59,841 bases of DNA from Candidatus Microgenomates bacterium. GTDB taxonomy: Bacteria > Patescibacteriota > Microgenomatia > JACQLA01. The stretch covers positions 250,088-309,928 of the forward strand of contig JACQLA010000003.1 of the NCBI GenBank assembly GCA_016204255.1, written 5' to 3'. The number at the start of each line of letters is the position of its first letter. The stretch's first letter is position 1. Of this stretch, positions 49,692 to 54,621 are shown piece after piece. The position numbers and the translations under genes are program-made. A model generated the notes under the pieces. The model saw only the letters and a program-made list of their open reading frames with translations, was not told the origin of the DNA and made no database searches.

Positions 49692-50074
49692 TTATTTGGC
49701 TTGCATATCCGGCTGCATGATCCCAAATAAATTGCCTTCAGTATCGTGACAATAAGCCAGCCAACCAACACTGGGCACTGCCATTTTAGGCACAACAATT
49801 ACCCCCCGGCATTTTTAATTTTTTGGATAAATTCGTCAACGGAAGGAACGTCAATTATGCAAACATAAGACCCCATGCCATCGCCATTTACGGGTTTTTC
49901 GCGCTTTAAAAGACCCCCATCAATTCCAGGATCTGCCTTATTTCCGGTCATAACAAGCCAGTAATCTTGCGGTCCCTCCCATTTTTTGATCTCCCAACCA
50001 AAAACACCGCTGTAGAACTTAATTGCCCGTTCGGGTTCATCGGCATGAATTTCAAAATGTATAATTCTTAACAT
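49692..50074 (-). pseudogene. VOC/glyoxalase-family protein, frameshifted at a G6 run (49802-49807)
   Basis: HFEIHADEPERA..FGW..GIDGG; the C-terminus VIVVPKMAVPSVGWLAYCHDTEGNLFGIMQ continues in another frame, and G7 would restore it. Confidence 0.85.
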
Positions 50075-50138
50075 ATTATTCTTTTAAGTTTTAAGCTTAA
50101 TACTCTGCGATAAAGAGCTTTAAGTTGACACCACCGCT

Positions 50139-50303
50139 TTACACCGTTTCTACCATAGCCCGAATCTCCTCATCTGAAGCCTCCATGTCGTGCATAGTCT
50201 TGGCATGTTTTTTCGCTATCTCCACCAATTCTTCTTCGTCATGACTCTGCACCATAAATCCGCATTCCGGATCGCAGATTATTCTTTTTAATGATCTATC
50301 CAT
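50139..50303 (-). CDS. DUF1059-like small metal-binding protein (54 aa)
   Basis: Manual translation: CDPECGFMVQSHDEEELVEIAKKHAKTMH; GAAAGGAGGTG RBS. Confidence 0.8.
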   Translation of the reverse strand: MDRSLKRIICDPECGFMVQSHDEEELVEIAKKHAKTMHDMEASDEEIRAMVETV

Positions 50304-50400
50304 TTTTCACCTCCTTTCTAAAAATACTTTATTTCACTTAAATAAATTTGTTATAAGACTTTCGTAAGAAATTGGTAAGAGGAATTAAAGACGTAGACTG

Positions 50401-50440
50401 AAAAAACCAAAGGGAGAGGGTGGCAGATTTCCACCCTCTC
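50401..50440 (-). terminator. Intrinsic terminator of the repeat-protein gene
   Basis: GAGAGGGTGG/CCACCCTCTC 10-bp stem followed by a T-rich tail on the minus strand. Confidence 0.75.
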
Positions 50441-50457
50441 AACTCATATCACTTAAA

Positions 50458-50841
50458 TCAGGGATCTCTGACGAAGAGACTGTCCAAAACTATGAGTTCA
50501 CCGAGCCGGGATACGTTACTGCCGTTCCTTGCCACACCATCTGTCGGGAAAAGGCTATCCAGAACAATTAGTTCTCCCAGACGGGATGCTTGGGCGCCGC
50601 TTACAGCTCCATCTCTAGGAAAAAGATTGTCCAAAACCATTAATTCTCCTAAACGGGAAACGTTACCGCTGCCCGACACTCCATCATTAGGAAACAATCC
50701 TTCTAAGACAATTAGTTCGCCTAGACGAGAAACATTTGTCGAGGCGGCAGAAGCCCCCGGAACAATTGCATAAGCCGCAACTGAAAACATAACTGCCGTA
50801 CTGGCGATTACTGCGGTTGCTTTTTTAAGAAGTCCTTTCAT
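50458..50841 (-). CDS. Secreted protein with four SRLGEL(I/M)VL(D/E)xLF repeats
   Basis: Sec signal peptide (..AYA/ASA) plus four ~25-aa tandem repeats. Confidence 0.85.
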   Translation of the reverse strand: MKGLLKKATAVIASTAVMFSVAAYAIVPGASAASTNVSRLGELIVLEGLFPNDGVSGSGNVSRLGELMVLDNLFPRDGAVSGAQASRLGELIVLDSLFPTDGVARNGSNVSRLGELIVLDSLFVRDP

Positions 50842-51090
50842 TTTTTCACCTCCTTTCTAAAACTTGTTTCGATAATTAATACCAATGTAGCGCGATTTGG
50901 TTAAAGGGTAATGAATAAATTGTAAGACCTTCGTAAGGGGAATTTACGGAAATAGTAAGATAATTTACACTATTTTATTGACATGGCGTCATTTAAATTA
51001 TCAATTGAGGAAAAATTTTACCCTGAAAGGTGAAGGCGGGTCATTTTTCTTTTTGAGCAAAGCTCGAAAACTAGTGATTTTGGGTTTTTG

Positions 51091-51124
51091 TGGGTAGCCG
51101 TGGAATCGAACCACGCACTCCTGT
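51091..51124 (-). pseudogene. Isolated tRNA 3' half (Val-like guess)
   Basis: ACAGG-AGTG-CGTGG-TTCGATT-CCACG-GCTACCC-A; a palindrome (51125-51149) sits where the 5' half should be. Confidence 0.65.
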
Positions 51125-51165
51125 CTCGCCGAAGCCTCGGCGTAGGCGGATCTTCTTTAAAAATG

Positions 51166-51205
51166 TGGGCTGTGATGGGATCGAACCATCAACCTCGTTC
51201 TTAGA
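51166..51205 (-). pseudogene. tRNA 3' half whose acceptor strand matches the 5' half at 51326-51376
   Basis: TCT-AA-GAACG-AGGTT-GATGG-TTCGATC-CCATC-ACAGCCC-A. Confidence 0.7.
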
Positions 51206-51235
51206 CGCCCCGATTTCATCGGGGCTAGAAATTTG

Positions 51236-51307
51236 TGGGTCGGGATGGAATCGAACCATCTACCTCTTCTTTATCAGAGAAGCGTTCTACCAGTGAACTA
51301 CCGACCC
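51236..51307 (-). tRNA. tRNA-Ile(GAT)
   Basis: Full cloverleaf: GGGTCGG/CCGACCC, anticodon arm CTTCT-CT-GAT-AA-AGAAG, T-loop TTCGATT; CCA not encoded. Confidence 0.93.
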
Positions 51308-51325
51308 TCATGATCCACAAATTTG

Positions 51326-51376
51326 CAGAAAGCGCTCGGACTTTATCCGGCTTTGACGAAACTGAGCCAACAGCCC
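51326..51376 (-). pseudogene. tRNA 5' half with an enlarged (26-nt) D-loop
   Basis: GGGCTGT-TG-GCTC-[26 nt]-GAGC-G-CTTTC-TG. Confidence 0.6.
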
Positions 51377-51388
51377 ATATATTATTTA

Positions 51389-51565
51389 TTACCCGCTTTT
51401 CTTCTGACTTCTTCTTAATAGTTCGCCGCCTGCTGCTAAAGCGATTCCAGCAACCAGAAGGGGCTCACTAACTAAAAGCCCAATTAGCCCTGCCACAATT
51501 CCGCCGTTTCTAACAACACCTCCAAAGCGCTCCAGTTTTCCTGCCGATCCTTGTTCTTTTCCCAC
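51389..51565 (-). CDS. Small 58-aa membrane protein
   Basis: Manual translation from GTG: GKEQGSAGKLERFGGVVRNGGIVAGLIGLLVSEPLLVAGIALAAGGELLRRSQKKSG. Confidence 0.5.
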   Translation of the reverse strand: MGKEQGSAGKLERFGGVVRNGGIVAGLIGLLVSEPLLVAGIALAAGGELLRRSQKKSG

Positions 51566-51566
51566 T

Positions 51567-51803
51567 CTATGCCGCCTTTAAACTCATTTTTTGTTTACCC
51601 TCTCTCTGTTTTTGCCATTTATCAAGAATCATTATTTGAGCCTGATCAACTATTACGCTTAAGGCGGCTACAGTCGCAATGCCTGAGGCCCCGACTATCC
51701 AAGCTACACCTAAAACTCCCAACCCGATATTCCTTGTTGTCTCGTTAAATTTTTTGTACCCTTCAACCATTCCAGATCTCTCTGGATTTGTCATACCTAT
51801 CAC
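51567..51803 (-). CDS. Small membrane protein
   Basis: ORF track; helical hairpin; GAGGTGA RBS precedes the second Met. Confidence 0.6.
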   Translation of the reverse strand: MIGMTNPERSGMVEGYKKFNETTRNIGLGVLGVAWIVGASGIATVAALSVIVDQAQIMILDKWQKQREGKQKMSLKAA

Positions 51804-51812
51804 CTCATTTAG

Positions 51813-51884
51813 AGGCGCAGGCCGGAATCGAACCGGCGTATCGCTGTTTTGCAGACAGCCGCGTTACCTCTTCGCCACTGCGCC
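51813..51884 (-). tRNA. tRNA-Cys(GCA)
   Basis: GGCGCAG/CTGCGCC, anticodon arm GCTGT-CT-GCA-AA-ACAGC, U73 discriminator. Confidence 0.95.
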
Positions 51885-52023
51885 GCTTCATTTTAGCATT
51901 CTATCGAGTAAAAAAATTTTACCATACAGCCTCCCAAAAGTCTATCTTCCCAAGAAAAATTGTTTTTGAAAATTTAACCCCTAGAACTTGTAATTTAACC
52001 TATAGAAGTCTATAATTGACCCT

Positions 52024-52977
52024 ATGACTGAGAGACAAAAAATCAATTATTACCGGCATGAAGGCATTACCCCGCGGTTATCTCTTGACGGACCCGTGGA
52101 CAATTCTATACAGGTGACTCTTGTCCCGAACAAAAACCCTTTTTTAGGAATTAAGGGAAGCTGGGGAACAATTAAACCAAGAGCTAAAGACGTCTTTTAT
52201 GATCAGCGTTTTGCATTGAATGAAAAAAATTTACCCCCCGCGGGTCTTACGGAAACCTTAGTACGGGATCTGACGGAAATGGAAGCTACAGATCAAAAAT
52301 CTGCAGACAATCCGGAAGAGGTAAGGGTTTTAGCCGAAGAAAACCTTAAAATATCTATCTATATTGATCAGGCGGAAGGCGGAATTGGCAGCTGGAGTTT
52401 AGATATTCCCCCCGAGATAGACGCCAAAACAAACCGTCAATTGATGGAAATTCTTGATGAGGTTGAACCAGAGGCAAGAGGAGAATTAATTGGAATATTT
52501 GAAAAGTTTCTCCCTCGCTGTTCTGTTGAGCCTGAGGAAGGCATTTTTCTTATGCTGGATGATGAAGAAATGTTTTCCATAAAAGAAAACAGTCTAAATG
52601 TTCGCTACGAAAATGAAAATTCGGGACCGGTTGAAAGCAAGCAGGGCGAATGGGCCGGAGAAGCCCCCTGTCTTTATAAACTAGAGCTGAACAACCCATC
52701 GCGTTTCGAATTTATAGCAGGTGATTTACCTCTATGGGGAAAAATGGAACAATTTGCTGTTCGGTTTATCGGAGGTCTTGAATTTTCATCAACCGAGTTT
52801 TGCGCAATAAGAGAAGCTATTGATCGGTTGCTGTCGGGTGGTAATAGCATCAGTACATCTGATATTCGAGAACACCTCAAACCATACATGCGGGTAGAAT
52901 TAGTTGATAGGAATAGCCGAAGTTTTTACCCGGAAGATAACCCGGAAGAAAATCCTCCTGAAGTAAATCGAAATTAA
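52024..52977 (+). CDS. Acidic hypothetical protein
   Basis: ORF track; TATAAT just upstream; no family recognised. Confidence 0.7.
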   Translation: MTERQKINYYRHEGITPRLSLDGPVDNSIQVTLVPNKNPFLGIKGSWGTIKPRAKDVFYDQRFALNEKNLPPAGLTETLVRDLTEMEATDQKSADNPEEVRVLAEENLKISIYIDQAEGGIGSWSLDIPPEIDAKTNRQLMEILDEVEPEARGELIGIFEKFLPRCSVEPEEGIFLMLDDEEMFSIKENSLNVRYENENSGPVESKQGEWAGEAPCLYKLELNNPSRFEFIAGDLPLWGKMEQFAVRFIGGLEFSSTEFCAIREAIDRLLSGGNSISTSDIREHLKPYMRVELVDRNSRSFYPEDNPEENPPEVNRN

Positions 52978-52988
52978 GAATCATCCCC

Positions 52989-53249
52989 TTAAACAAGATC
53001 GAGCTCTCGCATTTCGGCGGGTTGGGAAACTTCACTGGCTGGCCGTAATACGGGTTCCCGAGAAATTGATTTTAACTCCAGCCCTGGCATGAATTCTTCA
53101 TCAGCATCGCCAATGGTATTTTCATCGCTCTGTGTGTTTGAATCAGTCACCCGACCATCGGGGGTTGTCGGGGCCAGGAAACCTCGCCGGTTTTTACTGA
53201 ATGCAAATGCCAGATCTGACAGTAAGCAAGGGTTTTCTAATTTTGGCAT
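52989..53249 (-). CDS. Hypothetical protein
   Basis: ORF track; AGAGGTGA RBS. Confidence 0.5.
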   Translation of the reverse strand: MPKLENPCLLSDLAFAFSKNRRGFLAPTTPDGRVTDSNTQSDENTIGDADEEFMPGLELKSISREPVLRPASEVSQPAEMRELDLV

Positions 53250-53657: not shown

Positions 53658-54621
53658 TTCTGAGATAGCGCGTTACAACCATCTAAACGCTTCTCACCCA
53701 CGGAGCACACGGTTTTCCCGTACTCTCGCGGACGGCTATCCAAACATTGGCCTTCTATTATTCATAAATTCCCTGATTTTCAAAAGTTGGTCTATACCTT
53801 TCTCAGTAAGATGGTCTTTTTTCCTGAAAATCTCTGCTGCCTGGCAGAAAAGTTCAAAGTCCTTTCCCTTCTTACCTTTTAAGGGAAATTTCTTAAAGAA
53901 CGGAATAACCTTATGAAGAATATCGCCTTGTTTCCTAACGACAAACTTTACGTGAGGTTTCCATCCATATCTATCATAATTCAGTTCTACTATTCTTCCA
54001 CAGTCAAGCCTTTTTTGAATTAACTCCAAAATTGGTTTATCGTCTGCCCGAAGCTCAATTTCAAAACAAAGATTTGCATCCCTACCTGTTTTCTTTGTTT
54101 TATGCTTCGTTATCAGAATAGCAAAACATCCTTCCCCATCGGTAAAACCAACAATATACCACGGACTTAAAAACTTGTATGCACTCATGTTTGGTTAGCT
54201 TCGATCCTTCACCCCGATTAAATCGGGACTACTATGATCTCTGCAGACTTCCAGTATTTACTCGGTGTCAGTTCACACTGACACTTACTTCCATTGTTGA
54301 TTAACAACAAATAAAAGTCAATACTGGATCTCCCTTTGTAGCCATATTTTCCATCTATTATCATCTTGAGCCCAATTACCTAATTAGCTGTATTTAGTAA
54401 ATGGCTTCCCTATTTGTACGAAAGGTCGCCAACTGATTAGGCCGTCTCGACTTCAAGCTAATAACTGTTACTTTAGCCCTTCTCGCTCCAACATTACTGC
54501 AGGAGGATGCTATTTCGCTTTAAGAGCGTTACTTACTCTTAGAAGGATTTCCCGCTTCGACTTCGTCGAAGACGAGGCGAGTCACCTTCTGGAAAAAATG
54601 GCCGAAAGGCGCAATTTATTT
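53658..54621 (-). mobile_element. Group II-like intron (964 nt) at about E. coli 16S position 1396, with a LAGLIDADG ORF in domain IV
   Basis: Splits CTTGTACA|CACCGCC. TTGCGCC near the 5' end; GAAGTCTGCAGAGATCATAGTAG..GAAGGATCGAA domain III-like motif; CGC-triad domain V-like hairpin; domain VI-like stem with a bulged A. Confidence 0.8.
53736..54188 (-). CDS. Single-motif LAGLIDADG homing endonuclease
   Basis: WYIVGFTDGEGCF motif; VIPFFKKFPLKGKKGKDFELF tail. Confidence 0.95.
   Translation of the reverse strand: MSAYKFLSPWYIVGFTDGEGCFAILITKHKTKKTGRDANLCFEIELRADDKPILELIQKRLDCGRIVELNYDRYGWKPHVKFVVRKQGDILHKVIPFFKKFPLKGKKGKDFELFCQAAEIFRKKDHLTEKGIDQLLKIREFMNNRRPMFG

Follow-up and report, generated by a model that had tools for sequence, protein, structure and literature searches.

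The locus examined here raises two questions: how an intact tRNA gene came to lie within the anticodon loop of another, broken one, and whether the outer gene still makes a tRNA. It belongs to a window of 59,841 nt (C5:250088-309928; positions without a contig name below are those of the window) in an eight-contig genome of 712 kb, 41% GC and 81% completeness, whose profile is that of an ultra-small CPR/Patescibacteria bacterium; the relatives used for comparison are related at class level only. An initial annotation had taken the locus for a probable fossil of the insertion of a tRNA into a tRNA, and this idea held up well, given that the outer gene, hereafter the shell, is damaged and that the layout recurs elsewhere as a series of decay stages. 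The best explanation, and in our view a probable one, is a serial insertion of DNA cassettes, each carrying a spare tRNA gene that replaced the gene it broke.

All features of the nest (51166-51376) are on the minus strand, with an insert between the two halves of a tRNA gene (5' half, 51 nt; 3' half, 40 nt). With their neighbors, and with ^ marking points of interruption throughout, they are as follows.

51812-51884, minus strand: tRNA-Cys(GCA), the conserved upstream neighbor of the nest (Cys-Ile synteny)
51326-51376, minus strand: 5' half of the layer-1 shell, GGGCTGT TG GCTC (26-nt D loop) GAGC G CTTTC TG
51338-51363, minus strand: 26-nt D loop of the shell, an X-type insert (see below) made of the imperfect hairpin TCGTC-AAA-GCCGG followed by ATAAAGTCC
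51308-51325, minus strand: left arm of the cassette, CAAATTTGTGGATCATGA, a sequence found nowhere else among the loci compared
51236-51307, minus strand: layer 2 (innermost), intact tRNA-Ile(GAU), called by ARAGORN and by Rfam (RF00005, 71.1 bits)
51206-51235, minus strand: right arm CAAATTTCTAG, then the hairpin CCCCGATGAAATCGGGG (51224-51208) and CG
51166-51205, minus strand: 3' half of the layer-1 shell, TCTAA GAACG AGGTT GATGG TTCGATC CCATC ACAGCCC A
51091-51158, minus strand: layer-0 relic directly downstream of the shell, read as a 3' half left by another tRNA-Ile(GAU)

The 5' half of the shell thus comprises the acceptor strand GGGCTGT, the D stem GCTC/GAGC, the anticodon-stem strand CTTTC and the loop remnant TG, from which C32 is missing. 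The acceptor strand of the 3' half pairs 7/7 with 51376-51370, and its T arm is perfect, as reported before. Recounting also returned the earlier figures for the anticodon stem (4/5) and the flanking helix (11/12), and the sizes given for the D loop and for the insert with its complete tRNA-Ile were reproduced, as was the CCGAT-N3-ATCGG hairpin at 51224-51208. The insert (51325-51206) measures 120 nt, of which 72 are tRNA; the tRNA scaffold is 47 nt long. It contains no ORF and no target-site duplication. The 11 pairs between the arms include one G-T and count the two bases TG that precede the left arm (51327-51326). The arms are inverted repeats, and their sole direct repeat, CAAATTT, is part of a palindrome; the helix recognized previously is real by its pair count, but it is equally a direct repeat around the tRNA because CAAATTTG is its own reverse complement. 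The 211-nt sequence folds at -78.9 kcal/mol (z = -4.24), and the minimum-energy structure retains the outer acceptor helix, the inner cloverleaf and the hairpin. The genome contains 29 hairpin tips of the type CCGAT-N3-5-ATCGG where about 2 would be expected; the hairpin of the insert (CCCCGAT-N3-ATCGGGG) is one of the 29, and several lie in rnpB.

Within the nest, ARAGORN (with and without its intron mode) and Rfam called the inner gene only, in addition to the tRNA-Cys nearby. The inner gene is the sole tRNA-Ile(GAU) copy of the genome and is 100% identical to the tRNA-Ile of one relative (G032). The shell, in contrast, lacks what is expected of a functional tRNA, i.e., a 7-nt anticodon loop, U33, a normal D loop and recognition by a tRNA finder. 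When the halves were joined, a check proposed with the initial annotation, ARAGORN rejected the product and called it only after a normal D loop had been substituted, with an arbitrary anticodon. By its sequence, the outer shell does not appear to be a usable tRNA.

The loop had been described as Arg-like (TCT), an assignment that we abandon. The 3' half of the shell matches the inner tRNA-Ile best (score 48, versus 38 for Arg), and the whole shell is closest to the outermost layer of an Ile(GAT) nest in another genome (G015), a clean nest of three layers. This outermost shell reads GGGCTGC TG GTTC (75-nt D-loop insert) AGAAC G CTTTC CTGAT ^ ... ^ AA GAAAG ... GCAGCCC A, and the shell of the window GGGCTGT TG ... 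G CTTTC -TG ^ ... ^ AA GAACG ... ACAGCCC A. The two have the acceptor type and the anticodon-stem strand CTTTC in common; the window copy has lost C32 and has one stem mismatch (C-T). A second Ile(GAT) shell (L205; TTACA CTGA^) carries the same D-loop insert as the window shell. An Ile identity also agrees with the rule, described below, that shell and inner tRNA are cognate, and the search for another tRNA-Arg(TCT) in the genome returned a normal gene with an encoded CCA (C5:115725-115800). The shell thus appears to be a decayed tRNA-Ile(GAU), marked by the missing C32, the anticodon-stem mismatch and the 26-nt D loop.

Two further identities were considered and rejected. ARAGORN called 39 tRNAs genome-wide, but no tRNA-Asp(GTC), tRNA-Lys(TTT) or tmRNA in this 81% complete genome; these may lie in the absent 19% or be disrupted genes overlooked by the finder. 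The repaired shell construct was called 'Asp(gtc)', which is a formal artifact: the D loop had been exchanged manually, the discriminator base is an A and a U would stand at position 37. A tmRNA or two-piece tmRNA would need a G3-U70 pair and a tag, neither of which is present.

The initial annotation was right about the nest but overlooked a third piece, at 51158-51091. It reads CATTTTT ^ AA AGAAG AT (CCGCCTACGCCGAGGCTTCGGCGAGACAGG) AGTG CGTGG TTCGATT CCACG GCTACCC A, beginning at A37-A38, and both AAAGAAGA and the T loop TTCGATT are identical in this piece and in the inner tRNA-Ile. Its variable loop holds a REP-like hairpin (51149-51120), 23 nt of which recur elsewhere in other genomes at 96% identity, once within a coding region. 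The expected 5' partner, GGGTAGC, was not found in the neighborhood. Our reading is that an older Ile(GAU) layer left this piece as its 3' half. Because a further Ile 3' half adjoins the shell downstream, the locus would be multilayered, and it is best read from its sequence as a stack of three tRNA-Ile(GAU) genes of which the innermost copy works. The REP-like hairpin (CCGCCTACGCC.AGGCTTCGG..) lies in frame inside an apparent protein-coding gene of another genome (L025 of G009, 300-345).

T-arm-like motifs outside called tRNAs number 12 in the 712 kb of this genome, and 4 of the 12 lie just behind an intact tRNA. In three of these four cases, the motif is followed by 7 nt that pair with a 5' piece ahead of the respective tRNA; the fourth is the partnerless relic at 51091-51158. 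The nest layout is not due to chance. Two more nests were found in the same genome.

C3:25680-25950, plus strand: tRNA-Thr(TGT) in a Thr(TGT) shell, acceptor GCCGGGG/TCCCGGC, junction TTTTG^...^TAA
C5:121150-121400, minus strand: tRNA-Pro(TGG) in a Pro(TGG) shell, acceptor CGGGGTG/CACCCCG, junction TTTG^...^GA

The Thr shell has a 33-nt REP-like hairpin in its D loop and its 3' half 36 nt behind the inner gene; the Pro shell has a normal D loop and lacks one anticodon base at the junction. On C7, a 5' remnant precedes tRNA-Pro(CGG). An artifact of assembly, for which nothing speaks except that the source is a metagenome-assembled genome, is scarcely credible: the layout occurs in dozens of independent assemblies from different projects, and the halves pair 7/7 across the insert.

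Nests in other genomes display the same organization. In G015 (L011:1260-1690), three tRNA-Ile(GAT) genes are nested with perfect helices in all layers and junctions of the form CTGAT^AA. In G014, an allele nearly identical to the inner tRNA-Ile of the window is split at CTGA^ by a cassette with a different tRNA-Ile and the arms CCTGCCCGCC...GGCAGGTGGG; the same arms carry a tRNA-Thr(GGT) in a Thr(GGT) shell in L188 (junction TTGG^...^TAA). Two shells, the outer one with D-loop and T-loop inserts, surround a tRNA-Thr(GGT) in G363; a tRNA-Phe in a Phe shell is flanked by a perfect 15-bp inverted repeat in L203; and L173 also carries a nest. With few exceptions, the junctions fall between positions 35 and 36 or 36 and 37. 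Wherever the shell type was readable in the nests examined, shell and cargo were of the same isoacceptor. A side feature of the outermost shell of G015 is that its 75-nt D-loop insert contains an 'empty' stalk hairpin, GCACTAAAAATTTGT-TTCG-ACAAATTTTCAGTGC, which resembles the tRNA-bearing arms of the window locus and of G119.

The alleles of shell and cargo differ at 4 to 7 of 7 acceptor positions, with matching 3' strands, in the window, G014, G015, L188 and L173, which implies foreign or diverged donors. This bears on a scenario in which there was no mobile cassette, but a local tandem duplication of tRNA genes followed by palindrome-mediated rearrangement or deletion. These genomes are rich in palindromic repeats, and in 17 of 42 loci of the X type described below, the first 17 nt of the 5' piece are those of the downstream tRNA. 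Tandem duplication, however, places the copies side by side and not one of them at a constant position in the anticodon loop of its partner, and it leaves the differing alleles unaccounted for. We consider this scenario quite improbable.

An un-nested state, with a Cys-Ile spacing of 9 nt in G011 and 31 nt in G024, is found in relatives. Insertion at the window locus is inferred from comparison at class level because there is no close empty-site relative; the neighboring 317-aa protein has no relatives in metagenomes, and hence no sister locus was found. The gap between tRNA-Cys and the nest is 435 nt here versus 9 to 146 nt in relatives, and it holds two small ORFs of 78 and 58 aa (51389-51803, minus strand) with Gly/Ala-rich, membrane-like products. 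A sequence resembling a promoter is present near tRNA-Cys (51944-51916, minus strand). The Cys-Ile spacer of G032 (L002:430-575) contains the 5' piece of another Ile allele, and that of G035 (L010:950-1490) repeated 3' halves of tRNA-Cys.

The shells could be arranged by their degree of decay. The shell 5' half and the cargo are the same in L188, L171 and L182, but the right arm and the 3' half remain in L188 only; in L171 and L182 the cargo is directly followed by the downstream flank, as expected if cargo and shell had recombined through their direct repeats. Shells elsewhere end after the D arm (L185, L168 and L184) or in the variable loop (L160), and lone 3' halves are represented by the copies behind tRNA-Cys in G035 and by the layer-0 piece of the window. 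In all three multilayer nests (window, G015 and G363), the outer layers are more damaged. That parts of the shell are dispensable fits relics rather than exons. Across ultra-small (CPR) bacteria, the layering appears from these sequences to recur as if by a rule of 'replace what you break'.

Some shells are nevertheless perfect (L188 and layers 1 and 2 of G015), such that precise removal of the insert would restore a normal anticodon loop. They bring up the alternative that the insert is a tRNA-bearing intron: the 211-nt precursor would release the inner tRNA, the stalk would be removed and the halves ligated, making the shell a working tRNA as well. The site is indeed one that introns use, since a true group I intron (RF00028, 57 bits; L179:1990-2285, minus strand) interrupts a CPR tRNA-Phe at CTGA^AAA, between positions 35 and 36, behind an X-type Phe shell, and the complementarity of the arms is kept between nests although their sequences differ. 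The same model, which does detect the L179 intron, gave no match at E ≤ 10 in window positions 50000 to 53000, and the insert is thus without a group I core. No bulge-helix-bulge is formed either: the helix abuts the 5' junction only, and a 23-nt segment with the hairpin stands before the 3' junction. Joining would give a loop of UG+UCUAA at best, lacking C32, together with a 26-nt D loop. Neither RtcB (PF01139) nor EndA (PF01974) was found in the genome, an absence that is not final because the genome is 81% complete. Because of the missing RtcB and EndA and of the truncated shells in relatives, which lack the 3' half or are cut after the D arm, we take the outer pieces for probable DNA relics rather than a spliced outer tRNA, and an intron of this kind seems to us a faint prospect. 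The same shell damage and the same lack of enzymes disfavor the earlier suggestion of a processing scaffold or nested RNA.

The D loop of the window shell belongs to a wider family. We call X module a tRNA 5' piece with a hairpin and AUAAAGUCC in its D loop. Ten of 401 class-level genomes contain the 14-mer GATAAAGTCCGAGC, each of them once and 8 of the 10 as part of a tRNA 5' piece, while its reversed control had zero matches in the 401 genomes. A specific X pattern retrieved 50 metagenome loci, and together with the genome matches 45 unique loci were obtained, of nine isoacceptor types (Thr GGT/CGT/TGT, Phe, Lys CTT/TTT, Gly GCC, Val TAC and Ile GAT). In each of the 45, the hairpin followed by ATAAAGTCC is inserted at GCTCAGTT^...GAGC with native tRNA sequence on both sides, the D arms being of the GCTCAGTT^GGTAGAGC type with the hairpin and an invariant AUAAAGUCC inserted. 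At every locus with enough downstream sequence, an intact tRNA follows the X piece on its own strand after 4 to 487 nt; in the window, the tRNA-Ile is 26 nt downstream. The hairpin covaries (at one pair, GC 27, AU 4 and CG 4), with 12 double-change cells against 1.9 expected and none of 500 shuffles as high. A covariance model, R1, built from 39 X loci matched the window shell at 52.7 bits (E = 3.7e-11), placing it in the family; it found X in 5 of 121 relatives, one copy each, and no diverged copies in the 121.

These properties might mean that X is kept for a function of its own, as a processing leader, a decoy, or a nuclease recognition or immunity site. The sharp conservation of X, its occurrence once per genome, its position upstream of an intact tRNA and the covariation speak for this, as does its persistence in L171 and L182 after loss of the 3' half: in the trio of these loci and L188, 19 to 20 of 20 pattern-free X positions are identical, compared with 47 to 69% of third codon positions in rpmG. 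Strong purifying selection, as hinted at by this one trio, was weakened as a proposal by a tally of 12 related pairs. At positions outside the search pattern, identity was 87% for the X acceptor strand and 68% for the X hairpin, versus 76% for the useless remnant plus arm, 97% for the cargo tRNA and 45 to 60% for the flanks, so that X is not clearly more constrained than the rest of the shell. The X loci were found by demanding the motif, which biases the sample, and the window copy is the second most degenerate of the five scored by R1. A separate function is thus on the unlikely side, though it deserves more weight than splicing. A sigma-70 promoter (TTGGCT-N17-GATAAA) was also considered and rejected, being uncalled by a promoter scan and having a spacing that varies from 17 to 57 nt. 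We read X, from its distribution, as a second small site-specific insertion that would persist only in tRNA copies with a backup.

ORFs with a GIY-YIG motif (YIGYTENLKRR..H) were found within 1 kb of X in 4 of the 45 loci, versus 0 in 219 kb of other flank. In G011 the insert contains a GIY-YIG pseudogene (Pfam E = 0.0015, profile positions 12 to 39 of 78), and in three more loci intact GIY-YIG genes lie within 1 kb of X. A GIY-YIG protein is encoded next to loci of the L188/L033 type. There is no GIY-YIG gene in the insert or near the window locus, which could be a nuclease-less derivative of a cassette made of a GIY-YIG gene and a spare tRNA. Among candidates for the enzyme involved, a small GIY-YIG nuclease stands first.

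Several known systems resemble the nests in part. Integrative elements such as phages and ICEs target tRNA genes, often the anticodon loop, and carry sequence that keeps the tRNA working; this sequence is confined to the displaced part of the tRNA, and the elements extend over kilobases, code for an integrase and leave side-by-side att repeats. The tRNA fragments that they leave in tRNA genes have been described (PMC9897764). The window locus shares with them the tRNA-gene target, the maintenance of a working tRNA and the fragments left behind, but here the old gene contains an entire tRNA, mounted on a 47-nt scaffold, in a process that recurs, and the 120-nt insert holds no recombinase. GIY-YIG genes of the Seg type spread by break repair, in which neighboring sequence is co-copied. 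One of them, SegB, is a free-standing homing endonuclease gene in the tRNA cluster of phage T4 (PMC13096335). The association of GIY-YIG genes with tRNA genes at X loci and in G011 is alike, whereas Seg genes lie between tRNA genes without splitting them or bringing a spare, and the window insert has no nuclease gene.

Group I introns in the anticodon loops of bacterial tRNAs occupy the same site (as in L179) and can carry homing endonucleases; unlike them, the window insert has no ribozyme core, is too short and holds a tRNA. The disrupted tRNAs of archaea, be they bulge-helix-bulge, split or permuted, are likewise interrupted at or near the anticodon between complementary flanks (PMC4390854, PMC4090602). 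They differ in the bulge-helix-bulge and EndA, both missing here, and the nest is in a bacterial genome with an outer gene that is damaged and redundant. REP- or MITE-like repeats and mitochondrial double-hairpin elements also place short hairpins in loops of structured RNA genes, and the hairpin tips of the window locus belong to genome-wide families. We know of no such element that carries a tRNA gene or follows a cognate replacement rule.

The observations can be assembled into the following course of events, whose direction, mobility and enzyme are inferred. A short cassette, composed of a complete tRNA-Ile(GAU) gene and inverted-repeat arms, would insert at anticodon positions 35 to 37 of the resident tRNA-Ile(GAU), breaking it and supplying a substitute, and would have done so at least twice at the window locus. 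The oldest layer would survive as a 3' half (51091-51158), the middle one as two halves (51326-51376 and 51166-51205) and the innermost as the working gene. Dead shells would then decay, losing anticodon-loop bases, receiving palindromic hairpins in their D, variable or T loops, and losing halves by recombination between the direct repeats common to shell and cargo. The 26-nt D loop of the window shell would be one such hairpin insertion, of the X kind seen only with an intact copy downstream. The inner tRNA would presumably be released by RNase P and 3' processing, with CCA (none is encoded) added later and the shell pieces as by-products.

Since the arms keep their complementarity without conserving sequence, they are less suggestive of transposase ends than of a DNA hairpin or of a structure that is read at the RNA level, a point against the cassette explanation. 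More speculatively, and with a rather low likelihood in our estimation, the nests could represent an undescribed structure-guided mobility system, or the stalk-borne tRNA a new type of bacterial tRNA intron. In the former case, a minimal GIY-YIG nuclease would recognize the stem-loops of tRNA genes, and the hairpin with AUAAAGUCC, which precedes the cassette site by about 18 nt, would represent a cleavage-site scar or an immunity mark. In the latter, ordinary tRNA-processing enzymes would help to remove the stalk-borne tRNA. Either version, if true, would allow one locus to give several tRNA-derived RNAs.

Mobile DNA classically integrates into tRNA genes, but the elements known to do so restore no more than the end of the gene that they displace. 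In the nests, a complete spare tRNA borne on a minute palindromic scaffold would repeatedly take the place of the broken gene and leave a stack of shells. A full-text literature search returned no published description of such tRNA-in-tRNA layering, an absence in that search rather than proof of novelty. If general in the CPR, the process would explain many 'tRNA fragments' and odd tRNA-like calls, provide a route for the horizontal replacement of essential tRNA alleles, and link GIY-YIG nucleases, hairpin repeats and group I intron sites at positions 35 to 37; it would also warn annotators that the functional gene is the inner one.

Two other structured RNA genes of this genome deserve mention. 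The 16S rRNA is bacterial and has an intron-like insert and a LAGLIDADG ORF; the match spans 1432 nt, versus 1533 positions in the model, and the ORF (53736-54188, minus strand) and a match to group II D1-D4 (54204-54287, minus strand) lie directly downstream of it. The X hairpin with AAAGUCC resembles the P3/CR-I region of RNase P RNA, but X was rejected as an RNase P RNA because the real rnpB is at C2:11158-11651 (L026:1501-1994). The latter encodes an RNA of 494 nt that scores merely 60.7 bits and carries many CCCCGAT..ATCGGGG and CCGCC..GGCGG hairpin tips, the same kinds as at the nest locus. Its P3 and CR-I (CUCCGCC UUU GGCGGAG AGGAAAGUCC) resemble the X module.
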